The notes under the pieces are model-generated. The model was not told where the DNA came from. It saw only the letters and a program-made list of their open reading frames with translations, and did not search any database. DNA of 42,841 nucleotides, from the IMG/VR virus record IMGVR_UViG_3300030019_000001; one strand, given 5' to 3'. Source of the DNA: a virus. Its lineage: Duplodnaviria; Heunggongvirae; Uroviricota; Caudoviricetes. Position numbers and translations under genes: made by a program. Within the stretch, counting starts at the first letter, position 1. Every line of letters begins with the position of its first letter. Shown here piece by piece: positions 1,394 through 36,883 of the stretch.

Positions 1394-1729
1394 ATGAAAA
1401 AAGTTTATAAATTTGAAGAATATTATAATTACACAAATGATAAAGCTCCAACTTATAACATAGGAGATTATATTCTTGTTTCTAAACAATTAACGAAAAA
1501 AACATACCTAAAAGGCAAATTTATAATTGAAGAAATCGAGTATATAGACTATCTTGATGAATATCAATATGTTGCTTGGGATGGAGTAAAATCGCCAACA
1601 AATATTGGTCAAATTGCAATAATAAGTGGAAAAAGATGTGTATTAGATAAAGACATTAAAAGAAAACTCACACCAGCAGAAATTGAAGAATTTGAGGTTA
1701 GAAAAAATACAAAAAAATACAATATCTAA
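1394..1729 (+). CDS. Small protein, terminal-cassette family A (MKKVYKFEEYY... IGDYILV ... KNTKKYNI-stop)
   Basis: N-terminal MK..K.FE motif, K(V/I)GDY(V/I) motif, C-terminal KKYNI. Paralogous to 28082-28429 and 28426-28767. Confidence 0.6.
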   Translation: MKKVYKFEEYYNYTNDKAPTYNIGDYILVSKQLTKKTYLKGKFIIEEIEYIDYLDEYQYVAWDGVKSPTNIGQIAIISGKRCVLDKDIKRKLTPAEIEEFEVRKNTKKYNI

Positions 1730-1740
1730 TTAGATATTGT
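1719..1740. terminator. Perfect 22-nt palindrome ACAATATCTAATTAGATATTGT spanning the stop of 1394-1729 and lying just before the stop of the convergent gene 1747-2223
   Basis: Read directly from the sequence; it sits between convergent stops. Confidence 0.5.
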
Positions 1741-1746
1741 ATTTTT

Positions 1747-2223
1747 TTATAAATTAAATTTTAAAGTATCTTTATAAAAATTAAAATGCTCCACATTCAC
1801 ATCAGAAATAATTTTGTTTATATCATTCTGTTTAATAACAGTTGAAAAACTATAATACTCGCCATAATCTTCTTTTGATGACATAAGATGTCTTAAAAAT
1901 AATAGAGCAGTGTTCCATTTATCTTTATGATATGTTTTTACTGATTTACCCCAATGAAAATCTATTTTAATATCAGTATTGTTGGTTATAGTAAAAAGAA
2001 TATAAAAAATAACATCAAATTCTGAAGTAGGATAACTAAATCTATTAATAGTTATCATATATTCATAATCAGGAGGAGAATTAGTCGAATAAAACAAGTT
2101 ACTATCAGCACTCTTCAAAAATTCAACAATTTTATCACCTAACTTAATTACTTTATAGTGAGTATCAAGGTGAGATAAAAATTCTTCAGTGTAGACTACA
2201 TGTTCTTCATATTTTCGAATCAT
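1747..2223 (-). CDS. Hypothetical protein with C-terminal ...KFNL (terminal-cassette group B)
   Basis: 158-aa ORF; C-terminus DTLKFNL-stop; start MIRKYEEH overlaps the stop of the upstream paralog via TGATTTATGA. Confidence 0.5.
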   Translation of the reverse strand: MIRKYEEHVVYTEEFLSHLDTHYKVIKLGDKIVEFLKSADSNLFYSTNSPPDYEYMITINRFSYPTSEFDVIFYILFTITNNTDIKIDFHWGKSVKTYHKDKWNTALLFLRHLMSSKEDYGEYYSFSTVIKQNDINKIISDVNVEHFNFYKDTLKFNL

Positions 2224-2226
2224 AAA

Positions 2227-3500: not shown

Positions 3501-3585
3501 GATAATATTTTTTAATTATTAATTATATACAAAGATAATACTTAATCATGTGATAATCAAAAATGTTTTTATATTTTAAGAATTT

Positions 3586-4818
3586 TTAATCAATGTTACT
3601 ATTAATATACAAAGTCTCAACGTTTTTCAATTTTTTAGTTGACGTGGAGTCATCTTTATTATCATATATCACATCATTTTTCAATGAATTATCAACTTTT
3701 TTAGACTCATTATATAATTTTTCCATCACTAATTTATTATTTACTATAACATTATCTTCAAATAATTTTTCATTATTTAATTTATTATTTACTATAACAT
3801 TATCATCAAACAATTGTTCATTATTTAATTTGTTATCTGAAACTGCATTTTTATATAAATCTTCATTGGTTAATTTATTATTTACTATAAAATTATCATC
3901 AAATAATTTTTCATTGTTTAATTTGTTGCTCACTAAAACTTTACCGTCAAATAATTGTTCATTGATTAATTTGTTATCTGAACCTATATTTTTATATAAA
4001 TCTTCATTAGTTAATTTATTATCTAAAATTGTATTTTTATATAAATCTGCATTAGTTAATTTGTTGGTAGAATCTATATTTTTATATAAATCTGCATTAG
4101 TTAATTTGTTGGTAGAATCTATATTTTTATATAAATCTTCATTAGTTAAATTGTTGGTAGAATCTATATTTTTATACAAATCTGCATCAGTTAAATTGTT
4201 GGTAGAATCTATATTTTTATACAAATCTTCATTCACTAATTTGTTATCTGAACCTATATTTTTATACAAATCTTCATTCACTAATTTGTTATCTGAACCT
4301 ATATTTTTATATAAATCAGCATTTATTAATTTATTATCTGAACCTATATTTTTATATAAATCTTCATTTGTTAATTTGTTGACTGAATCTATATTTTTAT
4401 ACAAATCACTATTAGTTAATGAATTATCTATTTTATTATTATTGTATAATATTTCATTTTTTGGAGTTTTAATTATATCTATATTATTAAATAGTGATTT
4501 ATTACCTGGTGTTTTAATCACTGATACATTATTAAATACAATTTCTTTATTTGGTGTTTTATTCCTTTCTACAATCAATTCAGATTTTCCAGTCACATCA
4601 TCATTTACACCAAATTTATACATGGATTTATTTGGAGTATTGGTTCTTCCTGTGACAATCTCAGAATAACCTGTAACATCACCCAAATTTTTTATTCTGG
4701 TTATTTTTGAAACTGGTTGAGTATATACAGTTTCTTTATTCGGTGTTAATCCTAATAGTCCATGATTATTAACAATAATTTTATCAATTACATTATCATT
4801 TTTACTTTTTTTACCCAT
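3586..4818 (-). CDS. Tandem-repeat protein with about 20 copies of a 15-aa unit (consensus L-T-N-E-D-L-Y-K-N-I-D-S-T-N-K) plus degenerate N- and C-terminal repeats
   Basis: Translation shows NEDLYKNIGSDNKLV / NADLYKNIDSTNKLT repeated. The DNA has 45-nt tandem repeats. Confidence 0.7.
   Translation of the reverse strand: MGKKSKNDNVIDKIIVNNHGLLGLTPNKETVYTQPVSKITRIKNLGDVTGYSEIVTGRTNTPNKSMYKFGVNDDVTGKSELIVERNKTPNKEIVFNNVSVIKTPGNKSLFNNIDIIKTPKNEILYNNNKIDNSLTNSDLYKNIDSVNKLTNEDLYKNIGSDNKLINADLYKNIGSDNKLVNEDLYKNIGSDNKLVNEDLYKNIDSTNNLTDADLYKNIDSTNNLTNEDLYKNIDSTNKLTNADLYKNIDSTNKLTNADLYKNTILDNKLTNEDLYKNIGSDNKLINEQLFDGKVLVSNKLNNEKLFDDNFIVNNKLTNEDLYKNAVSDNKLNNEQLFDDNVIVNNKLNNEKLFEDNVIVNNKLVMEKLYNESKKVDNSLKNDVIYDNKDDSTSTKKLKNVETLYINSNID
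3633..4470. repeat. Coding 45-bp tandem repeat array (about 18-20 copies, most perfect around 3990-4400)
   Basis: Repeated ...tctatatttttatataaatct(g/t)cattagttaatttgttggtagaa... units are visible in the sequence. This produces the spurious antisense ORF 3593-4669. Confidence 0.8.
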
Positions 4819-5814: not shown

Positions 5815-5897
5815 TTATAATTATTATTATTTTAAAGTATATATAAAAAACACATCATAGAAAATAGTATAATTAAAAATTAATATATAATAGTCAT

Positions 5898-6221
5898 ATG
5901 AAACACATCAAATCATTTGAAGAAAAAATAAATAAAATATCAATAGATGAATTAAAAAATCATGGAATATCAAAAGATTCACCATTTTTGATTAGTGATA
6001 ATGAAAAATTACCAAAAGATACTAAATTTAAAATTGGAGATCATGTTAAAATAAATACAAATAACAATGAATATATCTACAAAATAGAATATTATTGTAT
6101 TGAAACTAAAAAATATACTTGCTTCATAACAATAGACACATTTTCAAGACAATGGATATATGAAGATGAATTAGAATTGGTTCCAGATTATGAAATATCA
6201 TCAAAAAAATTCAACATATGA
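5898..6221 (+). CDS. Small protein, terminal-cassette family A (MKHIKSFEE ... KIGDHVKI ... SSKKFNI)
   Basis: N- and C-terminal cassette; the stop TGA overlaps the next ATG (AACATATGAAA). Confidence 0.6.
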   Translation: MKHIKSFEEKINKISIDELKNHGISKDSPFLISDNEKLPKDTKFKIGDHVKINTNNNEYIYKIEYYCIETKKYTCFITIDTFSRQWIYEDELELVPDYEISSKKFNI

Positions 6222-6586
6222 AATATATTAAGAAATATGAGAACATAGATGAACATGTTAATGCAGAAGGTAAATTTTGGGAAATAAATACAGATGAACC
6301 ATATTTTGAAATCTCATTAAATAAACTTGGTTTTGATGAAGAGTTAAAGGAAAAAATATATGGAATGAATAACTCCTACATAAAAAATAGTGGATTAGTT
6401 TATATTTATATTATTAAAACAAATTTATCATACTTAGGCACATCAGTAACATGGAGTCATGTTACTGATTTCATAAAAGATACTGCAATAGAAAACGGTA
6501 ACAAATATATGGGAAAAGTTGAAATAACCGAAGATGATATTAAAAAATGGAATCTAATTAAAAAGACACAAAAATTCAACTTATGA
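6218..6586 (+). CDS. Small protein, terminal-cassette family A (MKYIKKYEN ... KKTQKFNL)
   Basis: Same cassette; ATGA overlap on both sides. Confidence 0.6.
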   Translation: MKYIKKYENIDEHVNAEGKFWEINTDEPYFEISLNKLGFDEELKEKIYGMNNSYIKNSGLVYIYIIKTNLSYLGTSVTWSHVTDFIKDTAIENGNKYMGKVEITEDDIKKWNLIKKTQKFNL

Positions 6587-7215
6587 AATACTTAAAAACA
6601 TATGAAGAAGGAATATCATCAGGTAATGCATCTGGAAAGGCAGGAGTAGGTTCGATTCCGTTTGGTAGAGGATATATGCAATCTGGTGGTAATAATGGAG
6701 CCAGTGGCATTGTATTCACTGCTGTTGGAGAACCATCATTCACCACATATAAAAGTATGAAGCATTCAAAAAAAGAATTAAAAGAGAAAAGAAGAAGACT
6801 TAGAATGTTCAAGAAATTCAGAAATGAAGGATTCATATCAGAAAAAATAGATGATTCTGGTTGGAATTGGGGAATAGTAAACAATGATAAAAATATTGGA
6901 AAATATATTATAATGAAAGATTCTGAAGAGTATTCATTCGCTTCAACCAAAGGAATAAGAAAAGAATTAGATACATTTGTTCAGAATAATACCGGAGAAA
7001 TAGTTTTATCAAGAAAATCAGCAGTTGGAATTTCTTATTTGATAAAATATGAAAATATACCAGACAATTTGAAAGAGCAATTTAAATCTTGCAATTTTTT
7101 AAATGATGAAGAAAATATATATTTACCTATAATAAAAAGACATAACAAAATTGAATTTATAGGTTCAAAAGAAGAATGTGAAATTAAAATATCAACAAAA
7201 AAATACAATATATAA
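6583..7215 (+). CDS. Terminal-cassette family A protein (210 aa; MKYLKTYEE ... Gly-rich GNASGKAGVGSIPFG ... ISTKKYNI)
   Basis: Cassette termini; shares the Gly-rich G..G.GSIPG segment with 7218-7610. Confidence 0.6.
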   Translation: MKYLKTYEEGISSGNASGKAGVGSIPFGRGYMQSGGNNGASGIVFTAVGEPSFTTYKSMKHSKKELKEKRRRLRMFKKFRNEGFISEKIDDSGWNWGIVNNDKNIGKYIIMKDSEEYSFASTKGIRKELDTFVQNNTGEIVLSRKSAVGISYLIKYENIPDNLKEQFKSCNFLNDEENIYLPIIKRHNKIEFIGSKEECEIKISTKKYNI

Positions 7216-7217: not shown

Positions 7218-7610
7218 ATGAAAAAATTTGAAGAATTTATGAAAGAAGATGCGTGTGCCACTCTCGGTAACACAGGAGGTATGGGCGCTATTGTAGCTGC
7301 TCAACCAGGAAGTATTCCTGGAACTCAAGGTACCACTGGCTCTGGTGATATTAGTCAAACTCTTGCCACATATTCTAAACCTGCTATAAATATGAAAAGA
7401 CATAAGAAAAACAAGAAAAATAAACTAAGAAAAGTAGAATCATTTGATGGTTTCATGAAGGAAGAAAATGAGATAATAGATAATTTCACAGCAAGATATT
7501 ACGACAATTATGATGACGAAGAAGAACCAAGTTATGAAGTAAATTTACAAGACATAGAAGAAAACAATATCAAAAAAATTCAAATGTACGAAAAAGATGA
7601 AAATAAATAA
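7218..7610 (+). CDS. Family A-related protein (MKKFEEFMKE ... GNTGGMGAIVAAQPGSIPGTQG ...) lacking the KFN(I/L) end
   Basis: Paralogous N-terminal half with 6583-7215. The C-terminus KDENK overlaps the next ORF by 14 nt, so this may be a frameshifted or fused family member. Confidence 0.45.
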   Translation: MKKFEEFMKEDACATLGNTGGMGAIVAAQPGSIPGTQGTTGSGDISQTLATYSKPAINMKRHKKNKKNKLRKVESFDGFMKEENEIIDNFTARYYDNYDDEEEPSYEVNLQDIEENNIKKIQMYEKDENK

Positions 7611-7893
7611 ATTTAACCAACTAAATGAATCAGATGAAATATCATACAATAAATCATTAGGATATGATAACTCAATGTTTGATAGTCTATCTGAATTGTA
7701 TAAATTATGGACAGACGCTGAAGGCTTATCTCATTTTTCAGCGGATGAATACGGATCAGAAGATTTGACAGATAAACAAATAGATTATTTAGAAAATTTT
7801 AATGATTTTTTGGAATTAACTCAAGACTTTGAACAAGATTATCATGAAAATGGTTATGCTTTAATTAAAAAAACAAAAAAATTTAACTTATAA
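7597..7893 (+). CDS. Small acidic protein ending ...KKTKKFNL (family A C-terminal cassette); the N-terminus MKINKFNQLNE contains an internal KFN remnant
   Basis: ORF; C-terminal cassette. Confidence 0.5.
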   Translation: MKINKFNQLNESDEISYNKSLGYDNSMFDSLSELYKLWTDAEGLSHFSADEYGSEDLTDKQIDYLENFNDFLELTQDFEQDYHENGYALIKKTKKFNL

Positions 7894-7999
7894 AATATGG
7901 ATAGCATAAGATCAAAATATCAGAAATATGGTGTTAAAAATTATTAAAGTGATAAAATACGCATCAAGTTTTTATATCACCGTAAATTAATATCAATTT

Positions 8000-8887
8000 T
8001 TATTTTTTATTCATATGAAAACAAATCTCGTTTAACCAACCACTTTTATATGATTTAGAATACGCACTAATAGATTTCATATAAAATTCAGATCTAGTCT
8101 TATATTTTAATGCTTCTATTTGACATAATTCTTTTGTCCAATAACCATTTGGTTTTACTAATGGTGTCATATGCAAACATATTTCTTTTAACCATTTATT
8201 TTTTAATGAAATTGTATATGCTGATGCTGATTGTTTTTTAAATTCAACTTTTGTATTAAATTTATTTGCTTCTATTTGACATAATTCTTTTGTCCAATAT
8301 TTTTTACCACCTGTTCCTCCTGTTTTACACTTATTTAAAATTTTCCAATCATTATTTTTATATTTATTAACATAATCCTCTTCTAATATTTTTGATAAAT
8401 AAACATCAATATATTCACTTAATTTTTTAAATTTATAATTATTATTTTTTTGTATATGTTCATAAACTGAGCCTTTTCTTAAATGTTCATTAAATCGTCT
8501 ATCTAAATCACAAGTCAATCCAATATATGCATAGTTATCAGAAAATTCATAAACATAAATACATCTTTTATATAAATCACCCATACACTTCATATGTGAG
8601 CATATTTCATCTATCCATCCATATATTAATGATTTACCATAAATATAACTTGAATTTTTCCTAAATTCATTTCTACTATTAAACTTCAAAGATTCTTTTT
8701 GACAAAAATCTTTTGTCCAGATATATGATTTATTTTTTCTCATATGAGCACAAACATCAAATATCCAATTATTTCTAATTGAGATTCCATATACTTGTTT
8801 ACATTTTATCCTAAATTCTTTTTTAGTTTTATATTTTAATGCTTCTTCAGTGCATTTTTCAATAGTCCATATTTTTTTATCTATCAT
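8000..8887 (-). CDS. GIY-YIG family endonuclease (homing-endonuclease-like) with two N-terminal and two C-terminal ~43-aa W.(K/E).C..E(A/S)LK(Y/F)..R.EF.......Y.....W..EIC.HM repeats
   Basis: Core CIYVYEFSDNYAYIGLTCDLDRRFNEHL (GIY...YIG...R...E). Repeats WTIEKCTEEALKYKTKKEF..., WTKDFCQKESLKFNSRNEF..., WTKELCQIEANKFNTKVEF..., WTKELCQIEALKYKTRSEF... Confidence 0.8.
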   Translation of the reverse strand: MIDKKIWTIEKCTEEALKYKTKKEFRIKCKQVYGISIRNNWIFDVCAHMRKNKSYIWTKDFCQKESLKFNSRNEFRKNSSYIYGKSLIYGWIDEICSHMKCMGDLYKRCIYVYEFSDNYAYIGLTCDLDRRFNEHLRKGSVYEHIQKNNNYKFKKLSEYIDVYLSKILEEDYVNKYKNNDWKILNKCKTGGTGGKKYWTKELCQIEANKFNTKVEFKKQSASAYTISLKNKWLKEICLHMTPLVKPNGYWTKELCQIEALKYKTRSEFYMKSISAYSKSYKSGWLNEICFHMNKK

Positions 8888-8983
8888 ATAAGTTATTTTT
8901 AAGTATATATTAAAAACTAATTATCATAAACTAAATAAAATAAAAATAATTAATTTTATATATAATAAAAATAATTAATTTTA

Positions 8984-9532
8984 ATGAAACACATCAAATC
9001 TATACATGAACATGGAATTAGAGATGAATACACAAAAATTGGTATTAAAAAATATTATACTGATAATAAAGAAACATATATTAATCCGCATGAAGATAAT
9101 ATCAAATTAGTATTGAATTGGTGTTTAAAAAAAATTAATATAACAAACTTTATTGATTTGTCATGTGGCAATGGAGAAATAACCAAATATTTATCTAAAA
9201 ATGGAATAATTGATGCAATTGGCACAGATCCATATTTTAATAATATTTATACAAAAAAAACAGGAAATGAATGTTTAAAACTTTCATTCGAGGATATAGC
9301 AATACATGGATTAAATTTACACAAACAAACAATTATCTGTTCGTATGCACTTCATCTATGCACCAACTCATATTTTAATCAGTTGATGTATAATTTATCA
9401 TTAAACTGTAAATATTTCATTTTAATATCACCAAGTAAATACCCAATCATCACAGAAGATTATTTTGAATTTATTGATGGAATAATTATCAATAGAACAC
9501 ATTGTAAAATATATAAAAGTAAAAATAATTAA
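8984..9532 (+). CDS. Putative class-I SAM-dependent methyltransferase-like protein
   Basis: Motif I-like IDLSCGNGEITKYL, then IIDAIGTDP and IICSYALH. N-terminus MKHIKSIHE. Identification rests on the motifs only. Confidence 0.4.
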   Translation: MKHIKSIHEHGIRDEYTKIGIKKYYTDNKETYINPHEDNIKLVLNWCLKKINITNFIDLSCGNGEITKYLSKNGIIDAIGTDPYFNNIYTKKTGNECLKLSFEDIAIHGLNLHKQTIICSYALHLCTNSYFNQLMYNLSLNCKYFILISPSKYPIITEDYFEFIDGIIINRTHCKIYKSKNN

Positions 9533-9601
9533 ACAATAACATTTTTTCTAAACAATTATAATAAAAATTCATATAATATTATAAAATAAAAATATAATAT
9601 A

Positions 9602-10594
9602 ATGGACTATAATAAGGATTATTATAAAGATCTAGGATTAAATAAAGATTCATCTGATGAAGAAATCAAAAAGAAATATCGAAAATTAGCATTAAAACAC
9701 CATCCAGATAAAAATCAAGGTGACAAAAATAGTGAGGAAAAATTCAAAATCATATCAGAAGCATATGAAGTATTATCTGACGATACAAAAAAGCAAGAAT
9801 ATGACACAAGAAGTCCTAATGGTAAATCATATTCATCATTCAATTCAAGTTTTTTTGGTGGTGGGCAAGACATATTCTCTCATTTCTTTGGTGAAAATAG
9901 TCCATTTGGTAATTTTTTTAGATCAGAAGAATTCACTGAGCAATTAGATATCAGTATAAATGTCAATATAGATTTTAAGCAAATATACAAAAATGATAAA
10001 ATTACAATAAAATATAAGAAATTTATAAATTGTGATGAATGCGATGGCACAGGATTTGATAAATCTGGAGAATCATATGATTGTGTTGTATGTGATGGTA
10101 CAGGAATAAATAACAACAGAGATTGTGAATATTGTCAAGGAACTGGAAAAATACACAGCGGAAAATGTAAAAAATGTAATGGAGAAAAAGTAATCATAAA
10201 AGAAACAGAACTACTTTTACAAAATATTTCAGAAATTAGGGGATCAAACAGAAATGTTCAATATGGTTATGGTAGTCAATCAAAATACTACAAAGATAAA
10301 GTAGGTAGCCTAATTTTAAATATAAACAGTATAAATAACAGTAAATGTAACATTATAAATAATTATGATTTGATATCAACATTAGACATACACTTTCAAG
10401 ATGCTATTGATGGAAACAAAATAAATTATACACACGTTGATGATTCAAAATTAGAAATAAAATTACCAAATAAAACTAAAAATAACGACACAATAAAAAT
10501 AAAAGAAAAAGGTTTATTGAAGCAGGATGGTAAACGTGCAGATTTATATTTAAAAATAAATATAATCATAGACTATGATAAATTAAATATATAA
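9602..10594 (+). CDS. dnaJ: DnaJ/Hsp40 type-I co-chaperone (J domain, G/F region, four CxxCxGxG zinc-finger repeats, C-terminal domain)
   Basis: [33 protein letters not shown] (HPD), a FGG/FF-rich linker, then [32 protein letters not shown]. Confidence 0.85.
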
Positions 10595-10903: not shown

Positions 10904-10956
10904 AATATAAGCCATATGACTTATATTAACACAATATAAGTCATATGGCTTATATT
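10904..10956. terminator. Perfect inverted repeat with 24-nt arms AATATAAGCCATATGACTTATATT / AATATAAGTCATATGGCTTATATT around an AACAC loop, exactly between the convergent stops at about 10898 and about 10960
   Basis: Read directly; each arm is itself a near-palindrome centred on CATATG, and AACAC...GTGTT flank the second arm. It is likely a bidirectional 3'-end or terminator hairpin. Confidence 0.65.
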
Positions 10957-10959
10957 GTG

Positions 10960-11448
10960 TTAATTTTCTTTTTCATTATCAAATATTTCTTGTAATTTAA
11001 GTTTACGTACAATTCTTTTAGAATCAGATAATATTTCATCTTTTGATTTATAACAAATAATATTATTCAAATCAACATATAATCTATCACAGCATATTGA
11101 ATGTCTACGATATGAACGATTATCATAAGGTATATAATCATCATAATACATTGGTTTACATATTATATAATTAAGATCAAATTTAAGTAAATATCGATAT
11201 TTAGGTTTGATTTTTGTTATTATTTCAGAATAAATATCATTCCAATCTTCACCTATTTTAGAATTTATAAATTCTTCTAAAGGTTTAAAATTATAATTGT
11301 GATATCTATTGTAATATATGCAATTTATTGATTGATGAGTAGGCAAATCTGAAAACAAATCAATATTATTATTACGTCTTGTTTTTGTGTATTGTTTATC
11401 TATACTTGTATTTCTACATTTTCTATATAAAAATTTATCTTTAAGCAT
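10960..11448 (-). CDS. Hypothetical protein (162 aa, Cys/Tyr-rich)
   Basis: ORF with an ATG. Confidence 0.45.
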   Translation of the reverse strand: MLKDKFLYRKCRNTSIDKQYTKTRRNNNIDLFSDLPTHQSINCIYYNRYHNYNFKPLEEFINSKIGEDWNDIYSEIITKIKPKYRYLLKFDLNYIICKPMYYDDYIPYDNRSYRRHSICCDRLYVDLNNIICYKSKDEILSDSKRIVRKLKLQEIFDNEKEN

Positions 11449-28081: not shown

Positions 28082-28429
28082 ATGAAATATTTAAAAAATT
28101 TTGAAAATGAATTAACCACTGAATATAAAGTAGGTGATTATGTATCAATTAACTATGATACAAAATCTAACACATTAACAAAGTTGAAGGATTTTGTGAA
28201 TAATTCGATAGGAAAAATAATGTTTATTGATGATAAAAGTATGATTATTCAATATGTTAATATTCCAGATAAAATAAAACATTTTTTTTCTGATAAAAAT
28301 GTTGGAAAAGATAAAATAAAAAATTCTGTATTTTTTTGGAATAAAAATAATACAATAAAAAGATTAGCAACAGATGATGAGATAATAGAATATGAAGCAA
28401 TTAAAAATACAAACAAATTTAACATATGA
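28082..28429 (+). CDS. Small protein, terminal-cassette family A (MKYLKNFENELTTEYKVGDYVSI ... KNTNKFNI)
   Basis: Cassette termini; close paralog of 28426-28767. Confidence 0.6.
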   Translation: MKYLKNFENELTTEYKVGDYVSINYDTKSNTLTKLKDFVNNSIGKIMFIDDKSMIIQYVNIPDKIKHFFSDKNVGKDKIKNSVFFWNKNNTIKRLATDDEIIEYEAIKNTNKFNI

Positions 28430-28767
28430 AGCACTTAAGATTATTTGAAAGCCAACTAAAGCCTAAATATAAAGTAGGAGATTATGTTCATTTAGATATG
28501 GAGCCAGATTTTACTTATGATGATTGCTTAGGACAAATACTTAAAATAGATAAAAACGGATTCATAAACGAACCTGAAGAAACAGATTCAAATAAAAAAC
28601 ATGATAATTATATTAACACATTAAATCTTTACCCATATAAAGTTAAAATATTGGATGGTAAATTCGATGCTGAAGAAGGCTTAATAGATAGATATATGAA
28701 AAAAGATGAAATAGAATATTTTGAGTATTTATTAAAGAATAAAGATACTAAAAAATTTAACATATGA
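28426..28767 (+). CDS. Small protein, terminal-cassette family A (MKHLRLFESQLKPKYKVGDYVHL ... KDTKKFNI)
   Basis: Cassette termini; ATGA overlaps on both sides. Confidence 0.6.
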   Translation: MKHLRLFESQLKPKYKVGDYVHLDMEPDFTYDDCLGQILKIDKNGFINEPEETDSNKKHDNYINTLNLYPYKVKILDGKFDAEEGLIDRYMKKDEIEYFEYLLKNKDTKKFNI

Positions 28768-29021
28768 GCAAATTAATAAATGATATACATAAAATGTTGG
28801 GTTATCTTAAAATAATACAACAATATAATTATTTTTCACAATTAGGAAATGAAGATGATATCGACTATTTAAAAGATAAAGTTGATAATTTATATTATAT
28901 AGATGACACAGATAAACTTATAAAAGATTTTGAATGGTGTGCAGATATGGTAAATCAACTTTATGATCAAGTTGATTCAGAATTTAAAAAGAGAATGTTA
29001 ATCGAAGAACAACTATACTAA
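28764..29021 (+). CDS. Small acidic protein (85 aa; MSKLINDIHK...)
   Basis: ORF starting at the AACATATGA junction; its stop is inside the hairpin. Confidence 0.45.
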   Translation: MSKLINDIHKMLGYLKIIQQYNYFSQLGNEDDIDYLKDKVDNLYYIDDTDKLIKDFEWCADMVNQLYDQVDSEFKKRMLIEEQLY

Positions 29022-29047
29022 AAAAGTCAGATTTAATCTGACTTTTT
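29021..29047. terminator. Perfect 12-bp-stem hairpin AAAAAGTCAGAT-tta-ATCTGACTTTTT bridging the two convergent stop codons (29019-29021 and 29050-29052)
   Basis: Read directly; A-tract and T-tract symmetric arms. Confidence 0.65.
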
Positions 29048-30894: not shown

Positions 30895-31311
30895 TTAATT
30901 AATTTTTTTCCTTAAATAATTAAAAACAATTTCAAAAAATATCAGTTTAATTGAAAATGCCAACATAACAAACCAAATAGATGTATTCAATGTGATTATA
31001 ACAGATGCAAGAATCATAGTTATTTCAGATATAAACCAAAATAAATGCCATGCATCAGTAAACACAACAAAAATAGTAGTACTTCCTATGAATTTTTCTC
31101 CATTTAATGGATTGGCATTTTTATATTTATTGAGAGACCCCAATCCTTGTTCCCAAAATTTTGGATTTAATTTATATTTTAAATATAATCTTGACTTGTA
31201 AAATAAATTAGGAGAAGATGATATATCAGTTATAGATTTAGATATACCAGATATTAATAATAAAAAAAGTATTATTAAAATGTTTAAAATTGCTGAAGTA
31301 GTTAGTATCAT
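30895..31311 (-). CDS. Predicted multi-pass membrane protein (138 aa) embedded between two group B paralogs
   Basis: Hydrophobic segments MILTTSAILNILIILFLLLISGI and ITMILASVIITLNTSIWFVMLAFSIKLIFF; its start overlaps the KFNI-TGA of the upstream gene. Confidence 0.5.
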   Translation of the reverse strand: MILTTSAILNILIILFLLLISGISKSITDISSSPNLFYKSRLYLKYKLNPKFWEQGLGSLNKYKNANPLNGEKFIGSTTIFVVFTDAWHLFWFISEITMILASVIITLNTSIWFVMLAFSIKLIFFEIVFNYLRKKIN

Positions 31312-31741: not shown

Positions 31742-32920
31742 TTATTTGAATTTGTTTTTTAATACTTGATATTGAGATTTAACAGAATAATAAGACCTAT
31801 TTAATTTTTTAGCACAACATTTTATTCCTATATGATAATTTTCAATTAAAAAAATAATATCATCTTCTGGCCATGAATTTTTTCTTTTTTTTGCTATCAT
31901 ATGAGAGCATATATCTTTATACCATTCATTTTTAATTGCAGATGCTGCTGCACTACTATTGTTTTTTAGAAAATCATCTTTATAAATATATTTTGATGCC
32001 TCGTATTTACATTTTTCATATGTCCAAAATTTAGCAGATCCTCCTAATGTACTTTTTTTGTTAGTATTTAATAATTTCCAATTATTATTTTTGTATTCAT
32101 TCATATAATATTCTTCCAATTTCTGTGCTTCTGATTTATTAATATAGTCAGTTAATTGTATCAATTTATATTTATTGCTTGCTTTTTGTAAATGTTTGTA
32201 AATTGGACCTTTTTTAATATGCTCCTGCTCTCTAATTTTTATATTATATGTCAATCCAATATATGCACAATTATCATCAAATTCAAAAGCATAAATACAT
32301 CTAAATTCTTTACTACCAATTTTTATCATATGTGAACAGATATCATTAGATATATTATTTACATTTGAAAAATTATAAGCACCTCTATATTTTTTTTGAA
32401 AATCATTTCTACTATTACACTTTAATGCTTCTTCTTTGCATTTATCATAATTCCAATAATTATTAACATAAGTCATATGATTACAAATTTTTTCTATCCA
32501 TTTTTTTGAAATAGATATTCTATATGCACTAGCATCATTTTTTCTAAAATCAGTTCTGGTTAAATATTTTAATGCTACTTCTTGACATTTTTCTATTGTC
32601 CAGTAATTATTAGGTTTATGACTTAAATTCATATGAGAACAAATACTATTTAGCCAATTATTTTTTAATGACTTATTATATGCAGTTGCTTCATTTTTTT
32701 GAAAATCTGATATAGAATTATAATTTAATGCTGCTTCTTGACATTTATTGTGTGTCCAATGTCCTGGAGTATTAATTTTATATTTCATATGTGAACAAAC
32801 AATATTTAAATATTTATTTTTTACACAAGCATTATATGCTAAATTATCTAATTTTTTAAAATCACTTCTATATTCATATTTTAATGCTGCTTTTTGACAT
32901 ATTTCTAATGTCCATTTCAT
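31742..32920 (-). CDS. GIY-YIG family endonuclease (homing-endonuclease-like) with four N-terminal and one C-terminal ~43-aa W..E.C..(A/E)AL.Y..R.DF.K...AY.....W...IC.HM repeats and a C-terminal helix-turn-helix-like tail
   Basis: Core FRCIYAFEFDDNCAYIGLTYNIKIREQEHIKKG. Repeats WTLEICQKAALKYEYRSDF..., WTHNKCQEAALNYNSISDF..., WTIEKCQEVALKYLTRTDF..., WNYDKCKEEALKCNSRNDF..., WTYEKCKYEASKYIYKDDF.... Tail NSWPEDDIIFLIENYHIGIKCCAKKLNRSYYSVKSQY. Confidence 0.8.
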   Translation of the reverse strand: MKWTLEICQKAALKYEYRSDFKKLDNLAYNACVKNKYLNIVCSHMKYKINTPGHWTHNKCQEAALNYNSISDFQKNEATAYNKSLKNNWLNSICSHMNLSHKPNNYWTIEKCQEVALKYLTRTDFRKNDASAYRISISKKWIEKICNHMTYVNNYWNYDKCKEEALKCNSRNDFQKKYRGAYNFSNVNNISNDICSHMIKIGSKEFRCIYAFEFDDNCAYIGLTYNIKIREQEHIKKGPIYKHLQKASNKYKLIQLTDYINKSEAQKLEEYYMNEYKNNNWKLLNTNKKSTLGGSAKFWTYEKCKYEASKYIYKDDFLKNNSSAAASAIKNEWYKDICSHMIAKKRKNSWPEDDIIFLIENYHIGIKCCAKKLNRSYYSVKSQYQVLKNKFK

Positions 32921-33089
32921 AGTTTTTATTGTTTATTTTTTAATAATTTATTATATATTATAAAACAATTAATGTTTTTGATCATATAAAATAAAGTTAA
33001 ACTATAAATATTTTGATTTATGAAATAAATTCATTATATTTGTAAAAATATAAACTTAAAAATAAAATAAAATAATATTAGATAAATAT

Positions 33090-36000
33090 ATGAAAATTGC
33101 TCACTTAGCTGATGTTCACATTAGAAACCTTGAAAGACATGAAGAATATAATGATATTTTTCAAAAAATAATAAAAAAATTACGCAAAATTACACCAGAT
33201 AGAATTGTTATTGTTGGTGATTTATTTGAAAGTTATATTGAAATTTCAAATGAAGCTGAAATTATAGCTGGAAATTTCTTAAATGAATTATCAAAAATTG
33301 CTAAAGTTATAATAGTTCGTGGTAATCATGATATTCGTAAGAAAAATTTAAATAGAATCGACAGCATAGAAACTGTAGTTAAACTAATGAATAATCCAAA
33401 TGTTACTTATTATGATAAAACTGGATTTTATGATGATAAGCAAGATAACAATTTTGTTTGGGTTGTTTATGAACACTCAGATAAAGACAACGATCCATGG
33501 AAAAATATTAAAAAATATGATGGTAAAATATATATTGGGTTATTTCATGACCCAGTTTTAAATGTAACATCAAATACTGGTAAAGTTTTTAATGATGCAA
33601 ACAAGTACAAAAATATGAATTATTTTAATAATAATGATTTTGTGCTAATAGGTGATATCCACAAGCGTCAGTATTTAAGAAATGATAAATCTGCTGCATA
33701 TTGTGGCTCAACTATACAACAATCATATGGTGAAACAATTGAAAATCATGGTTTTTTATTATGGGATATAAAATCACCATCAGATTTTGATGTCACTGAA
33801 TATGATATTGACAATGAACACACTTTCATAAATCTTTATATTGATGAATCATCAGATTATGACAATTTAAATTTGTCTGCTGATAAAATTGGAACAGATA
33901 CTGAAATTAAAGTTCATTGGAAAGAATATTCATCAATTATAAATACTGTTAATGAAAAGAAAATAAGAGATTATATTAAAAATAAATTTAGCACAACTAA
34001 AGTTATTTTTGAAAAAGTTTATTTATACACAGATATATTATCATCAAAAATGCTATCAGAATCAATTGATTTGACTGATACTGAAACACAGAAAGAAATA
34101 TTTAATGAATATTTAGAAGAGCAAAAATACAAAAAAGATGATATTGAATCTATTCTTAAAATTGATGATATAATAAATAGTAGAGTTCAATTGGTAGAAT
34201 GCTTAAAAAATACTGAATGGAGTATTGATAAATTCTGGTTTAGTAATTTTAAATCTTATGGAGATGATAATGTTATAGATTGGGCTGATATTAATGGAAT
34301 TGTACAAATTCATGGAGAAAATCAGGAAGGTAAAACAACTATTTTAGATGCACTTACTTATATTCTTTATGGTAAGACTACGACAACATTAAGTCCTGAA
34401 AAATTTGGAGATTCAAGATATATAAATAACAAAAGAGATTTAGATTATGTTAATGGTGGTGCAATTATTAATTCAAATGGTAATAAATTCGTTATTCAGA
34501 GAAAGACAGAAAGAGTTTGGAATAAGAATCACACGGCATTAACAAGCTGTCCTACATCATTGGATTTTTATAAAAGCGAGAATATTTGTGAAGAAAATAA
34601 ATTAACAGATGAAATTAAAGCTAAGACTCAAAAAGAATTGGACTCTATTTTAGGAGATTTGAAAGATTTTATTAGATTGTCATTCACTAATGCTGATAAT
34701 TTAAATGATTTATTATCAGAAAATAGAAGTGTATTTATGGATAACATCATCAGAGATGCTGGTTATGATATTTTTGAAATTAAATTGAATGAATTTAAAG
34801 AATATAAAAAAGAATTAGTAGAAGAAAAATTAATAGTAAATATTCAAGATTCTGAATCTCGTGTGAAAGAATTGAATACTGAAATTATTGATATTAAAGA
34901 TATTATTGATACTAATAATTCTGATATTGAGAAGCATGAAAAAGAATTATCTGATTATAATACAGATAGAGATAATTTAAATAAAAAATTAAATAATATT
35001 GATTTATCAATGTTAACTTTTAATGAAGATTTAAATTTGAATACCATCAACAATTATGAATCTAAAATTGAAGAATCTAAAATTCAAAGCACAATTTTAG
35101 ATAGAGACATTGATAAATTACCTACTGAATTCGATTCATCTAAACTTGATGAATATAAAATTAAATTGAAGCAAACGAACTTGAAAATTTCTGAACGAAA
35201 AGATGAAATTTCAAATTTGAAAACTTCATTATTAGAATCTGATAATAAAATAGATAAAGTTAATATTAAAATTGATGAATTAAAACAATCTGAAATTAGA
35301 AAAATATCATCAAAAATAAATGCAAATGATTTACAAATTGAAGTTATTAAAAATAATAAATCTAATATCATAAAGGATGAAATAAAAAAAATAACATCAG
35401 AAATTCAAGAATTAGAATTAAATTTAAAAGAATTATCATCTAATATAAAATTATTACAAAAAGATGGAGTTAACGCTAAAAATTCAAATGAGGAATTAGA
35501 TAAAGAAATAGAAACATTCAAAAATTCAAAATCTTGTCCTAGCTGTGGTAGAGATTATGATAAAAATGATCCAAAATATTCAGAACACTTAGCTCATTTA
35601 GAAGATAAAATTAAAAGTCTTGAAATTAAAAAAGAACCAAATTCTTTGATAATTAAAGATTGTATATTAAAGTATAAAGATTTAAAAAATGAATCTATTG
35701 AATGTAATACAAATATTCTTAATTTGGAAGACATGAAAAAAAGGTTAATTCAAGGAGAATACCCTGATGATATATTATCTAAATTGAAAGAAATTGGTAG
35801 CAGTAAGAAGTTGACTCAAGACAATTTAGATTTAAATAAATTAATAGAAAAAATTGAGAATAACATATTTGATGAATCTGAAACATTAAATGAAAATATT
35901 GAGAAAGGGAAAGAACTAATAAAAAACATAGAAAAAGGCAAATTAGATACATCAATTGTAATAAAAAATATTGAGTCTGAATTGAAAAATTTTAATGTTG

Positions 36001-36845
36001 AAGGTATAGATGATGATATTTCAATTGAGGAAACTAAGAAAGATAATTTTGAGTTAAGAAACAGAAAAATGTCAAATAGAGATAATATTATTTTATCAAT
36101 CGAAAATTTTAATTTTAAAATAAAAGAACTAAAATTAGAAATAGAAAAATATCAAGAATATAAAGTTAAAATAGATGAAAATAAAATTATTCAATTATCA
36201 ATAGATGATGTGGATAATAATATTAAAGTCGTTAAAGAACAAATAAAAAATTTATCACAAATAAATATAGAAATGGAAAAAAATATTATACTCAAAGAAA
36301 ATGATATTTTTATAATTTCAACTAAGATAAAAAAATATTTAAAACAAAAGAAAAAAGATGAGTTATTAAAGGAGTATCAAAAATGTATTAGTCGTGATGG
36401 ATTACCTACTTTTTTATTGAAAAAGTCTATTCATTTAATTAATAAAGAATTGAATGAATTATTAATAAATGTTAATTTTACATTATTTTTTGATGATAAT
36501 TTAAATTTAAGGCTTAGTGCAGATGATAGGCTAGATTCCAGTCAAAATGCAATTGAAAGTTCTGGAAAAGAAAGAACATTTTGTGCTCTTGCATTGAAGA
36601 TAGCATTACGACAAATAAATGTCAAATCAAAATCTACGTTTATTGTATTGGATGAAATTATGGGTAAATTAATTGATGGTAAAAAAACAAAATCTGTTCA
36701 GCAATTTTTAGAATTTATTGATGAGTTGAAAAATAAAGTAAATAAAATTGTAATTATTGAACAGGTGCATAGTATAAATTTTGATGCATCAATTGAAGTT
36801 GATAAAGACGAAGAATTAGTTTCTCACTTAGAATTAGTTTATTAA
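33090..36845 (+). CDS. Single-chain Mre11/SbcD nuclease fused to a Rad50/SbcC ABC-ATPase with a coiled coil and CxxC zinc hook (1251 aa)
   Basis: Phosphoesterase motifs HLADVH, VGDLFE, RGNHD, GLFHD, IGDIHKRQ in the first ~230 aa. Walker A GENQEGKTTILDALTYILYGKT. Long K/E/N-rich coiled coil with zinc hook SKSCPSCGRDY. Signature-like SSGKERTFCALAL, Walker B FIVLDEIMG, H-loop VIIIEQVHS. Confidence 0.8.
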   Translation: MKIAHLADVHIRNLERHEEYNDIFQKIIKKLRKITPDRIVIVGDLFESYIEISNEAEIIAGNFLNELSKIAKVIIVRGNHDIRKKNLNRIDSIETVVKLMNNPNVTYYDKTGFYDDKQDNNFVWVVYEHSDKDNDPWKNIKKYDGKIYIGLFHDPVLNVTSNTGKVFNDANKYKNMNYFNNNDFVLIGDIHKRQYLRNDKSAAYCGSTIQQSYGETIENHGFLLWDIKSPSDFDVTEYDIDNEHTFINLYIDESSDYDNLNLSADKIGTDTEIKVHWKEYSSIINTVNEKKIRDYIKNKFSTTKVIFEKVYLYTDILSSKMLSESIDLTDTETQKEIFNEYLEEQKYKKDDIESILKIDDIINSRVQLVECLKNTEWSIDKFWFSNFKSYGDDNVIDWADINGIVQIHGENQEGKTTILDALTYILYGKTTTTLSPEKFGDSRYINNKRDLDYVNGGAIINSNGNKFVIQRKTERVWNKNHTALTSCPTSLDFYKSENICEENKLTDEIKAKTQKELDSILGDLKDFIRLSFTNADNLNDLLSENRSVFMDNIIRDAGYDIFEIKLNEFKEYKKELVEEKLIVNIQDSESRVKELNTEIIDIKDIIDTNNSDIEKHEKELSDYNTDRDNLNKKLNNIDLSMLTFNEDLNLNTINNYESKIEESKIQSTILDRDIDKLPTEFDSSKLDEYKIKLKQTNLKISERKDEISNLKTSLLESDNKIDKVNIKIDELKQSEIRKISSKINANDLQIEVIKNNKSNIIKDEIKKITSEIQELELNLKELSSNIKLLQKDGVNAKNSNEELDKEIETFKNSKSCPSCGRDYDKNDPKYSEHLAHLEDKIKSLEIKKEPNSLIIKDCILKYKDLKNESIECNTNILNLEDMKKRLIQGEYPDDILSKLKEIGSSKKLTQDNLDLNKLIEKIENNIFDESETLNENIEKGKELIKNIEKGKLDTSIVIKNIESELKNFNVEGIDDDISIEETKKDNFELRNRKMSNRDNIILSIENFNFKIKELKLEIEKYQEYKVKIDENKIIQLSIDDVDNNIKVVKEQIKNLSQINIEMEKNIILKENDIFIISTKIKKYLKQKKKDELLKEYQKCISRDGLPTFLLKKSIHLINKELNELLINVNFTLFFDDNLNLRLSADDRLDSSQNAIESSGKERTFCALALKIALRQINVKSKSTFIVLDEIMGKLIDGKKTKSVQQFLEFIDELKNKVNKIVIIEQVHSINFDASIEVDKDEELVSHLELVY

Positions 36846-36849
36846 AAAC

Positions 36850-36883
36850 AAAAAAAGAGTAGATTTTTATCTGCTCTTTTTTT
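36850..36883. terminator. Hairpin AAAAAAAGAGTAGAT-tttt-ATCTGCTCTTTTTTT (15-bp stem with one G:U pair) between the convergent stops at 36843-36845 and 36885-36887
   Basis: Read directly; it looks like a classic intrinsic terminator with a trailing T-run and is also symmetric. Confidence 0.65.

Follow-up and report, generated by a model that had tools for sequence, protein, structure and literature searches.

Hairpins at convergent gene junctions of a huge tailed phage are probably bidirectional intrinsic transcription terminators

A strong, nearly perfect stem-loop of 11–24 bp occupies six of the eight convergent gene junctions in the 42,841-nucleotide stretch of DNA analyzed here (the window). 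We consider it likely, with a probability of roughly 85%, that a huge tailed phage uses these six hairpins as bidirectional intrinsic (factor-independent, Rho-independent) transcription terminators. This interpretation, which draws on sequence comparison, is supported by the anatomy of the elements, their placement at the ends of transcription units, their absence between tightly coupled tandem genes, the retention of structure while sequence turns over, and the phage source of the DNA. The initial annotation of the window had offered bidirectional terminators as one of two alternatives – the other being the ‘hairpin rule’ for mRNA 3′-end formation in Mimiviridae – and the evidence favors the former. 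The six hairpins are listed with folding energies and z scores for the plus and minus strands (+/−).

1711–1748, both strands: T1, 17-bp perfect stem with a 4-nt loop, A7 on the 5′ side and T7 on the 3′ side; −16.0/−19.7 kcal/mol, z −7.4/−8.6
10904–10964, both strands: T3, two inverted copies of the 24-nt near-palindrome AATATAAGYCATATGRCTTATATT, with AACAC between them and GTGTT after; −33.5/−31.8 kcal/mol, z −10.6/−9.5
14722–14749, both strands: T4, 11-bp perfect stem (AAAACCAAAAC/GTTTTGGTTTT) with a 6-nt loop, an A-rich 5′ flank and a T-rich 3′ flank; −12.8/−12.9 kcal/mol, z −3.7/−4.2
18164–18197, both strands: T5, 15-bp perfect stem with a 4-nt loop; −18.4/−18.8 kcal/mol, z −6.2/−6.0
29021–29047, both strands: T6, 12-bp perfect stem (AAAAAGTCAGAT/ATCTGACTTTTT) with a 3-nt loop; −12.6/−13.3 kcal/mol, z −4.3/−2.5
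36847–36886 (stem 36850–36883), both strands: T7, 15-bp stem with a 4-nt loop, A7 on the 5′ side and T7 on the 3′ side; −19.0/−16.8 kcal/mol, z −5.9/−6.3

The six elements have no sequence in common and share an anatomy: 2–5 G-C pairs in the core, a loop of 3–6 nt and, at five of the six, A/T tracts at the base of the stem (7–9 A in 10 nt on the 5′ side, 6–9 T in 10 nt on the 3′ side). T3, T4, and T5 were detected on both strands by a generic terminator scan. T1 has G-C at only 2 of its 17 pairs and, relative to stem length, is a weaker hairpin than those of classical terminators. Palindromes of like length inside genes mostly lack both the tracts and the G-C pairs. Several pure A/T stems of 9–12 bp also occur inside genes and in other spacers.

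All six hairpins lie 0–5 nt from stop codons or overlap them. The hairpins beginning at 10904, 14722, and 36847 sit between both stops, 1–5 nt from each; T4 is placed between stops at 14716–14718 and 14756–14758, and T7 exactly fills the gap between those at 36843–36845 and 36885–36887. T1 contains both stops – that of gene 1394–1729(+) atop the 5′ arm, which codes for the C-terminal residues KKYNI*, and that of gene 1747–2223(−) overlapping the base of the 3′ arm. The loop of T5 holds the TAA stop of gene 17850–18182(+), its 5′ arm codes for KKESSE, and the base of its 3′ arm is overlapped by the stop of gene 18196–18462(−). The first base of the T6 stem is the last base of the plus-strand stop, and the minus-strand stop lies 2 nt past the stem.

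Much of what the initial annotation said about these elements stands. AT-rich stems of 11–24 bp between or overlapping the stops are an accurate description of the six strong hairpins, and its remark that several are followed by T-runs was an understatement, as in five of six the stem is preceded by an A-run and followed by a T-run. It called the stems perfect, which is right for T1 and T3–T6 but not for T7, where one G.U pair on the plus strand is an A.C mismatch on the minus strand. Hairpins were found at or around the positions it gave, though 1719–1740 is only the inner part of 1711–1748, and the hairpin placed at 18168–18194 really spans 18164–18197. Its claim that every convergent gene pair is bridged in this way was too broad: an imperfect hairpin that it counted at about 7950–7985 is at chance level, and a convergent pair that it missed (24470/24483) has no hairpin.

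Folding statistics set the six hairpins apart from their surroundings. We compared 61–81-nt junction segments with 200 dinucleotide shuffles on both strands, and obtained folding energies of −12.6 to −33.5 kcal/mol on both strands, with z scores of −3.7 to −10.6 on the plus strand and −2.5 to −9.5 on the minus strand. The initial annotation had proposed comparing palindromes with shuffled sequence and convergent with tandem and divergent junctions, and both comparisons revealed enrichment. The window contains ten perfect stems of 11 bp or more (loop 3–8 nt), against 0.78 ± 0.98 expected from 60 dinucleotide shuffles, and convergent zones make up 1.2% of the window yet hold five of nine hairpin sites (binomial p = 3e-8). 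The best 46-nt folding energy distinguished convergent from all other junctions (Mann-Whitney p = 2e-4), including when only gaps of 10–170 nt were considered (p = 5e-4), with a median of −14.8 kcal/mol at convergent junctions versus −5.5 at tandem ones. Among the seven spaced convergent junctions, six carry a hairpin, whereas a comparable terminator-like hairpin was found at 0 of 41 tandem and 0 of 9 divergent junctions of the window. None of the window’s tandem junctions showed a convincing one-way terminator, which implies that almost all units end where genes converge.

Three features lie at or near the two convergent junctions that lack a convincing hairpin.

7950–7985, no strand assigned: weak, imperfect hairpin within the 106 nt that separate genes 7597–7893(+) and 8000–8887(−)
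24470–24483, no strand assigned: convergent overlap, where genes 24178–24483(+) and 24470–24787(−) overlap tail to tail by 14 nt
24241–24267, minus strand: candidate one-way terminator, a perfect stem of 12 bp, six of them G-C, then TTTTTATTG

The hairpin at 7950–7985 (−6.1/−6.6 kcal/mol, z −2.0/−0.9) is indistinguishable from chance, with 6 and 34 of 200 shuffles folding as well, and probably does not function as a terminator. Position 7942, 8 nt away, is the left edge of a segment (7942–9536) that includes a GIY-YIG endonuclease gene and is replaced in relatives by about 475 nt. No hairpin was found at the 24470–24483 junction (z −0.7/−0.75, dinucleotide shuffles), and the 14-nt overlap is kept in two relatives (L006 and L002). 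The stem at 24241–24267 is stable (−19.9 kcal/mol, z −4.7) and falls inside the coding sequence of 24178–24483(+), some 205 nt beyond the stop of the minus-strand gene. Conservation is only partial: in L006 the stem carries a single mismatch and the T-run is missing, and in L010 a direct repeat takes its place. It is uncertain that this stem closes the minus-strand unit 25377–24470, and the stem may have arisen incidentally from a repeated SG.T peptide.

Gene content provides a well-supported case that the window derives from a huge tailed phage, as judged from protein similarity. The window is AT-rich (23% GC) and encodes a GH19 endolysin, a collagen-like tail fiber, and a Mre11/Rad50 fusion (SbcCD). 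The best matches of the fused SbcCD gene, a 1417-aa protein, and a 717-aa protein are huge and jumbo phages, namely LR756501 (‘uncultured phage’, 735 kb) and Tenacibaculum, Chryseobacterium, and Prevotella phages; overall, the window is most closely related to the 735-kb LR756501, in which canonical GC-rich terminators are present, and to jumbo phages that infect Bacteroidota. Coding sequence accounts for 94% of the window, some start and stop codons overlap as ATGA, all three stop codons are in use, and no Shine-Dalgarno sequences were found in the window.

The pattern recurs in related IMG/VR and metagenome phage contigs. Counting each distinct junction once and applying a hairpin cut-off of ≤ −11 kcal/mol, we found a hairpin in these relatives at 22 of the 24 convergent junctions whose gap is 12 nt or longer, compared with 23 of 108 tandem, 7 of 38 divergent, and 2 of 17 overlapping convergent junctions (Mann-Whitney p = 6e-10). 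The tandem-junction hairpins of the relatives are textbook terminators (e.g., AAAACCCTCTGAtttTCAGAGGGTTTTTTATTTG).

Individual hairpins are either kept or exchanged. T5 is retained at the homologous junction down to relatives of 45% amino-acid identity. The T4 stem is identical in a relative of 83% identity (L009), where the loop is inverted from AATTAA to TTAATT. Compensatory changes were seen in T5 (GTTCAG/CTGAAC to GTCCAG/CTGGAC in L106) and in T6 (one G-C to C-G change in L006), though this covariation, one pair in each hairpin, comes from very few sequences, and the shuffle control for T6 covariation was not significant (168/500). In relatives of 68–94% identity, the junctions of T1, T3, and T7 instead carry hairpins unrelated to those of the window. 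In 85–94%-identical relatives, gene 1394–1729 is absent and an unrelated hairpin, AAAAAAAGCTGAAATTTAAATTTCAGCTTTTTTT, directly follows the NUDIX gene. An unrelated hairpin likewise takes the T7 position in L002; T7 is absent from L001/L006 and L003, where the three-gene minus-strand cassette 36853–39635 is missing and the junction is tandem. Selection in this lineage appears to act on the structure of the hairpins rather than on their sequence.

T3 is the atypical element. Its hairpin at 10904–10956 has a 24-bp stem and a loop of 5 nt, and an alternative, overlapping hairpin at 10925–10964 is followed on the plus strand by TTTCTTTTTC; there is no A-tract, and the T-run comes only after the alternative hairpin. 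At the same junction, relatives L009 and L018 have an ordinary terminator, AAAAAGAAAGTCAATCataaGATTGACTTTCTTTTT, of which the window keeps only the 3′ end, TTTCTTTTTCATTATC – by this comparison, the T3 array has overwritten an ancestral ordinary terminator. The two adjacent copies of the T3 unit are the only ones in the window, while related contigs, including one of 235 kb, have the unit at one site each, at a different convergent junction, and an unrelated contig has it in tandem arrays. Because it is built from a sequence-specific repeat, T3 may have another or additional role. We regard as improbable, though conceivable, the broader idea that the terminator hairpins also serve as joints for gene-module swaps, with the T3 array a small mobile or protein-bound ‘portable terminator’ and not a locally evolved hairpin.

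Two promoter-like motifs complement the hairpins.

407–417(+), 5838–5848(−), 8954–8964(+), 13931–13941(−), 19883–19893(+), 25402–25412(−), and 37639–37649(−): exact copies of the promoter-like motif TTTTATATATA
33012–33042(+), 3530–3561(−), 12378–12408(−), and 40007–40037(+): Bacteroidota-type sigma-A promoter-like motif TTTG-N19-TAnnTTTG

All seven exact TTTTATATATA matches are intergenic and precede a start codon in the same orientation, and a search tolerating one mismatch gives 63 matches versus 27.6 ± 5.7 expected. These copies sit at the starts of the transcription units whose ends are the hairpins. Four of the seven full matches to TTTG-N19-TAnnTTTG are intergenic, correctly oriented, and 30–66 nt upstream of a start codon, although the total in the window is not above chance (7 vs 5.9 expected). 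Promoter-like motifs are located at divergent junctions, not beside hairpins. Together with the nearest relatives, they suggest a Bacteroidota-type host.

The alternative explanations differ in how much of this evidence they accommodate. Short A/T palindromes are common at 23% GC, several pure A/T stems lie elsewhere in the window as noted, and the 7950–7985 hairpin is itself at chance level, but we give almost no credence to chance palindromes in low-complexity AT-rich DNA as the general explanation. Chance origin is ruled out for the six strong hairpins by the excess of stems, their concentration in 1.2% of the sequence, z scores reaching −10.6, and replication in relatives. Polyadenylation signals of Mimiviridae that follow a ‘hairpin rule’ were reportedly described by Byrne and colleagues in 2009. 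The rule is defined by a palindrome that can form a hairpin but has no sequence conservation (Priet et al. 2015, PMC4402537). If it applied here, the DNA would come from a giant virus infecting eukaryotes and the palindromes would direct processing of mRNA 3′ ends, with cleavage by an RNase III-like viral enzyme followed by polyadenylation. The AT-rich genome, palindromes without a common sequence just past stop codons, the lack of Shine-Dalgarno sequences, and the Mre11/Rad50 fusion – an architecture first noted in Mimivirus (PMC3175470) – are all compatible with it. However, the large proteins have tailed huge and jumbo phages as nearest relatives, and the endolysin and collagen-like tail fiber also speak against a giant virus. 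Lack of Shine-Dalgarno sequences is typical of Bacteroidota, too. Hairpins are found only at the ends of transcription units, with none at the 41 tandem junctions, whereas the rule expects them at most genes whatever the orientation of the neighbor, and it does not need the A/T tracts present on both sides. The Mimivirus early promoter AAAATTGA is not enriched in the window (17 matches vs 20.6 ± 4.2 expected) and is not positioned upstream of genes, and a Pfam scan of 20 window proteins detected neither an RNase III nor a poly(A) polymerase domain. The hairpin rule is thus close to refuted here, and the taxonomic clue that the initial annotation saw in these palindromes is misleading where it points to giant viruses, the nearest relatives being phages.

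It is unlikely that the hairpins are mainly RNA 3′-end stabilizers or processing barriers (REP-like, blocking 3′-5′ exonucleases) and not polymerase stop signals. Stable stem-loops do lie exactly at the 3′ end of each unit’s last gene, T3 lacks classical tracts and resembles a repeated palindromic unit, and one preprint reportedly proposes REP elements as 3′UTR regulators between convergent genes (bioRxiv 10.64898/2026.03.23.713779). Yet a U-tract consistently follows the stem immediately on both strands, which termination needs and exonuclease protection does not, and the hairpins other than T3 are not a repeated sequence family. Stabilizer and terminator roles do not exclude each other. Very unlikely, in our judgment, is a role at the DNA level, with the hairpins acting as recombination break-points or cassette boundaries (like T4-type PeSLs or integron attC) or as sites for DNA-binding proteins. 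Several differences from an 85%-identical relative have an endpoint no more than about 20 nt from a hairpin: the indel 1411–1742 and the cassette 36853–39635 each have an edge on a strong hairpin (T1 and T7), the edge at 14758 is 9 nt from T4, and the edges at 7942 and 26283 adjoin the weak hairpin 7950–7985 and a palindrome at 26230–26262. The inverted T4 loop of a relative implies that a DNA hairpin or cruciform forms in vivo, and the changed location of the T3 unit in relatives and its tandem arrays in an unrelated contig fit such a role as well. Cassette boundaries are expected at gene ends anyway, however, and only a function in RNA accounts for the polarity of the A/T tracts and the G.U pair of T7. 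The cassette 36853–39635 is flanked not by hairpins but by a short imperfect direct repeat (AATTAGTT..TTAAA.AAAA). With no sequence in common, the hairpins offer no homology for recombination, unlike the PeSLs of T4-type phages, which are conserved composite promoter and stem-loop sequences, repeated genome-wide, that provide it (PMC2839356, PMC4122927).

Under the preferred interpretation of bidirectional intrinsic termination, the window would consist of alternating plus- and minus-strand transcription units that start at divergent junctions and end tail to tail. A single symmetric element – A-tract, stem-loop, T-tract – would occupy the short gap between two stop codons, and RNA from either strand would form a stable hairpin followed at once by a U-run, at which a bacterial-type RNA polymerase would pause and release the transcript. 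One DNA element would in this manner close both converging units and block read-through into antisense. Two-way use would require perfect Watson-Crick symmetry, since any G.U pair in the RNA of one strand corresponds to an A.C mismatch in that of the other. The AT-richness of the stems presumably reflects that of the genome, and the length of the stems would offset having so few G-C pairs. We infer both that transcripts end at the hairpins and that the host polymerase is the transcriber; no polymerase gene lies within the window, and some jumbo phages encode their own RNA polymerase. The two of eight convergent junctions without a convincing hairpin count against the terminator interpretation.

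The hairpins are of value for annotation and classification, as they would mark transcription-unit ends in an uncultivated huge phage of 23% GC. Combined with the promoter-like motifs at divergent junctions, they would give a usable operon map of the window. They imply no new mechanism; they point to bacterial-type factor-independent termination and argue against treating AT-rich palindromes as a giant-virus signature. The lineage may offer a clean natural example of two-way use selecting perfect Watson-Crick symmetry, and of a terminator sequence replaced by an unrelated one with its position kept.

Among known systems, the Mimiviridae hairpin rule shares with the window an AT-rich genome and consensus-free palindromes just past stop codons, and differs in that the window belongs to a tailed phage, has hairpins at unit ends only and with A/T tracts, and shows neither a Mimivirus promoter nor, in the 20 proteins scanned, an RNase III/poly(A) polymerase module. 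As in PeSL cassettes, stem-loops lie at the borders of small variable gene modules, and gene content beside several hairpins differs between close relatives, but the window hairpins are unrelated in sequence and not joined to a promoter. T3 alone is similar to REP-like repeated extragenic palindromes, having a near-palindromic unit of about 24 nt in two to three adjacent copies in a convergent-gene spacer; unlike these, its unit is not a dispersed high-copy family and occurs at one site in the window and in each related contig. Compared with the bidirectional intrinsic terminators of bacterial and phage convergent genes, the window stems are unusually long and AT-rich (11–24 bp, 2–5 G-C pairs), and three hairpins overlap the coding ends and stop codons of flanking genes. 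Terminators common to convergent genes reportedly face tighter constraint than one-way terminators (PMC5381666). The window hairpins resemble such elements in their A-tract/stem-loop/T-tract anatomy a few nucleotides from both stops, in their location at the ends of operons and not inside them, and in a structure kept by compensatory changes.

The window holds 8 convergent, 9 divergent and 41 tandem gene junctions. We observed a strong stem-loop at six of the eight convergent junctions – equivalently, at six of the seven convergent pairs with a spacer.

Hairpins at convergent junctions
1711-1748, stem of 17 bp
10904-10956, stem of 24 bp, with an overlapping alternative at 10925-10964
14722-14749, stem of 11 bp
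18164-18197, stem of 15 bp
29021-29047, stem of 12 bp
36850-36883, stem of 15 bp with one G.U pair (A.C on the opposite strand)

The six junction segments fold at -12.6 to -33.5 kcal/mol on both strands, with z-scores of -2.5 to -10.6 against dinucleotide shuffles. Three hairpins (1711, 18164 and 29021) overlap stop codons and the other three fill the space between both stops, as the initial annotation had proposed. Its further claim, that every convergent pair carries a perfect hairpin, is overstated in both 'every' and 'perfect': two of the eight junctions fall outside it, and the stem at 36850-36883 has a G.U pair. The 'imperfect' hairpin it placed at 7950-7985 folds no better than expected by chance (z = -2.0 and -0.9), and the eighth convergent junction, which it did not list, is a 14-nt tail-to-tail gene overlap (24470-24483) with no hairpin (z = -0.7).

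A generic terminator scan misses the hairpins at 1711, 29021 and 36850, which fail its rule on stem G-C pairs or on a T-rich tail after the stem, and we therefore used purpose-written scans. Both comparison with shuffled sequence and comparison among junction types uphold an enrichment. We counted 10 perfect stems of 11 bp or longer (loop 3-8 nt) in the window; 60 dinucleotide shuffles gave 0.78 +/- 0.98. The 521 nt (1.2%) around convergent junctions hold five of nine hairpin sites (binomial p = 3e-8), and a sixth could be counted if the G.U pair in the hairpin at 36850 were allowed. Folding energies (best local value) are lower at convergent than at other junctions (p = 2e-4; p = 5e-4 when matched for gap length), and none of the window's 41 tandem and 9 divergent junctions has a comparable hairpin. 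The observation is thus real and statistically solid, though overstated. The sole low energy outside convergent junctions, -11.5 kcal/mol at 26217-26262, belongs to an A/T-only palindrome adjoining an inserted gene. Relatives keep neither this 16-bp palindrome (26230-26262) nor a perfect intragenic 12-bp hairpin at 6442-6469, and we treated both as non-functional or unrelated.

In five of the six hairpins the stem is bordered by an A-run on its 5' side and by a T-run on its 3' side; the core has two to five G-C pairs and the loop 3-6 nt. Read from either strand, the hairpin is therefore followed directly by a U-run. An example is the element at 18164-18197, whose two strands read CUUUCUUUUAUUUUUU and CUUUCUUUUUUUAGCUUUUUU. 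Palindromes of 9-12 bp inside genes consist for the most part of A/T only, without such flanking tracts. Consistent with this U-tract anatomy, with convergent placement and with persistence or replacement in relatives, we favour the second reading offered by the initial annotation – that the hairpins are bidirectional intrinsic (Rho-independent) terminators of bacterial type – at a probability of about 0.85. That transcripts end at the hairpins, and which polymerase is stopped there, we infer. A single symmetric element would halt polymerases coming from either side, and such two-way use would favour perfect Watson-Crick pairing, since any wobble pair formed in the RNA of one strand becomes a mismatch in that of the other.

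To the window we compared about 25 related stretches, using automatic gene calls (in agreement with our manual map for 57 of 59 genes), counting each distinct junction once and scoring a hairpin where the best fold reached -11 kcal/mol or below.

Junctions with a hairpin in relatives
Convergent, gap of at least 12 nt: 22/24
Tandem, gap of at least 12 nt: 23/108
Divergent: 7/38
Convergent, overlapping or gap below 12 nt: 2/17

Convergent junctions differ from the others across gaps of 12-170 nt (Mann-Whitney p = 6e-10). Tandem-junction hairpins of relatives look like textbook terminators, a GC-rich stem followed by a T-run, and canonical terminators likewise occur in a 44-kb piece of the 735-kb 'uncultured phage' LR756501; the convergent pairs of this piece mostly overlap and so carry little weight in the convergent-junction statistic.

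At homologous junctions, hairpins are either kept or exchanged. The one at 18164 is kept down to 45% amino-acid identity, with a compensatory change from GTTCAG/CTGAAC to GTCCAG/CTGGAC. At 29021 a relative swaps a G-C pair for C-G; this covariation is not significant in a shuffle control with three sequences, and a metagenome scan for covariation yielded five relatives, limiting the statistics. Unrelated hairpins take the place of those at 1711 and 10904 at the same junctions in close relatives, and at the 36850 junction one related contig has an unrelated hairpin ~80 nt downstream of the stop. Relatives without the three-gene minus-strand cassette 36853-39635 have a tandem junction there and no hairpin. 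This persistence and replacement argues that selection acts on hairpin position and structure, not on sequence. The stem at 14722 is retained with its loop inverted, AATTAA in the window (14733-14738) and TTAATT in an 83%-identical relative; this small inversion implies a DNA hairpin or cruciform in vivo.

The overlapping junction may have a terminator elsewhere. A perfect 12-bp stem with six G-C pairs lies at 24241-24267, inside the coding sequence of gene 24178-24483(+), and is followed on the minus strand by TTTTTATTG. It may be a candidate terminator of the minus-strand unit that ends in the gene overlapping the plus-strand one; relatives keep this stem only in part.

We observed two promoter-like motifs.

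TTTTATATATA, exact copies: 407-417+, 5838-5848-, 8954-8964+, 13931-13941-, 19883-19893+, 25402-25412-, 37639-37649-
TTTG-N19-20-TAnnTTTG, Bacteroidota sigma-A type: 3530-3561-, 12378-12408-, 33012-33042+, 40007-40037+; also 454+, 14405+, 30410-

All seven exact copies of TTTTATATATA, usually preceded by further T residues, are intergenic and upstream of a same-strand start codon, mainly in divergent spacers, making it a candidate phage-specific promoter. The second motif lies 22-77 nt upstream of start codons. Its full -33/-7 pattern has no overall enrichment in the window (7 vs 5.9 expected); the placement of four of the seven matches, correctly oriented in intergenic spacers, is suggestive. 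On this evidence, the transcription units seem to begin at divergent junctions and to close at the hairpins.

The window has a GC content of 22-29%. Under the standard bacterial code 94% of it is coding, and each of the three stop codons is in use. Its 59 called genes form alternating plus-strand and minus-strand blocks, with frequent ATGA overlaps between genes of the same orientation. Scanning the window against Rfam (gathering thresholds) and for tRNAs gave no matches, nor did megablast of 20 kb of it against GenBank phages. Recognisable products include a GH19-type endolysin, a RuvC-like resolvase, a collagen-like tail fibre, a NUDIX protein and two GIY-YIG endonucleases, together with the following.

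3586-4818, 410-aa repeat protein, ~15 tandem copies of N[EA]DLYKNI[GD]S[DT]NKL
9602-10594, full-length DnaJ
12730-13923, 397-aa protein with many G.W..G.[WF] repeats
33090-36845, Mre11/Rad50 (SbcCD) fusion, one 1251-aa protein joining an Mre11/SbcD-like phosphoesterase and a Rad50/SbcC-like ATPase
40103-40396, ClpS adaptor
40681-42841, ClpA/C-type double-AAA unfoldase

The unfoldase gene is incomplete, extending past the window end, and neither repeat protein has a family match. The best tblastn matches of the fused nuclease and of 1417-aa and 717-aa proteins are huge and jumbo phages; the 1417-aa protein is 37% identical across 96% to 735-kb LR756501/LR756503. The other best matches are to 460-640-kb phages and to phages of Tenacibaculum, Chryseobacterium, Flavobacterium and Prevotella. 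An identical copy of the 717-aa protein is encoded on contigs of 0.2-1 Mb from metagenomes, and the close relatives, with 66-94% protein identity, are viral contigs in IMG/VR, the longest 235 kb. These protein matches and large contigs identify the source, on sequence grounds, as a huge tailed phage. The host is probably a member of the Bacteroidota. No Shine-Dalgarno sequences occur anywhere in the window, an absence also consistent with Bacteroidota; with the Bacteroidota-type promoter sites, it is a clue to host phylum.

The strongest hairpin, at 10904-10964, consists of two inverted copies of the 24-nt near-palindrome TATAAGYCATATGRCTTATA, and a T-run follows only its alternative hairpin (10925-10964). 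The unit took over most of an ordinary terminator that relatives retain at this junction. Two relatives have a near-identical unit in three tandem copies at a different convergent junction (14560-14640 in L001), and an unrelated viral contig of 38% GC, L044, carries TATAAGCCATTCGGCTTATA as a tandem array (3690-3800). An IMG/VR scan found the unit in 74 stretches, nearly all single hits in unrelated contigs; these single hits, and the one site per related contig, rule out a dispersed repeat family.

A shared protein ending, ..[TS].K[FY]N[IL]*, occurs on 13 of the window's 68 ORFs of at least 60 aa.

ORFs with the shared ending
1394-1729+, 1747-2223-, 2227-2703-, 5898-6221+, 6218-6586+, 6583-7215+, 7597-7893+
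28082-28429+, 28426-28767+, 29543-29932-, 29942-30373-, 30456-30893-, 31308-31727-

Most start with MK.[IL]K.[FY]E; between the two ends the sequences vary. Two relatives have the ending on 13/42 and 13/47 ORFs; more distant relatives and the 735-kb phage have none. Two of the 13 match PHROGs, each a different family, and a 115-aa member has no tblastn match among GenBank phages. These ORFs may form a large lineage-specific family or share a terminal tag. The 5' arm of the hairpin at 1711-1748 encodes this ending (KKYNI*), and the 3' arm repeats that coding sequence in inverted orientation.

The initial annotation's other reading took the palindromes as a giant-virus signal, the Mimiviridae hairpin rule (PMC4402537). 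This reading fails: the virus is of the wrong kind, tandem genes are without downstream hairpins, U-tracts are present and the AAAATTGA promoter is lacking. The Mre11/Rad50 fusion was first described in Mimivirus (R555) and also occurs in scattered plasmids and phages (PMC3175470). It is not evidence for a giant virus, since jumbo phages have the same fusion. The hairpins may also stabilise RNA 3' ends, possibly alongside termination.

Several indel edges adjoin hairpins, among the segments absent or replaced in a ~85%-identical relative, and hint weakly that the hairpins might act primarily on DNA, as recombination joints.

Variable segments: 1411-1742, 7942-9536, 26283-27171, 30913-31306, 31747-32941, 36853-39635
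Genes in them: GIY-YIG endonucleases (8000-8887 and 31742-32920), a 297-aa Cys-rich gene (26290-27183), a membrane-protein gene
Three-gene cassette, 36853-39635: DUF5675 gene, 108-aa ORF, collagen-like tail fibre

A short imperfect direct repeat, AATTAGTT..TTAAA.AAAA, flanks the cassette, and relatives of the DUF5675 gene adjoining the 36850 hairpin are too distant to trace hairpin with cassette. Cassette edges are, however, expected at gene ends in any case. Taken as bidirectional terminators, the hairpins of this newly sampled huge phage would be of an ordinary, already known type, less unusual than the protein family with conserved termini and the palindromic unit at 10904-10964. They also differ from the PeSLs, the promoter-terminator cassettes of T4-type phages, in a way that counts against recombination joints: PeSLs share sequence with one another, whereas the hairpins of the window have none in common.
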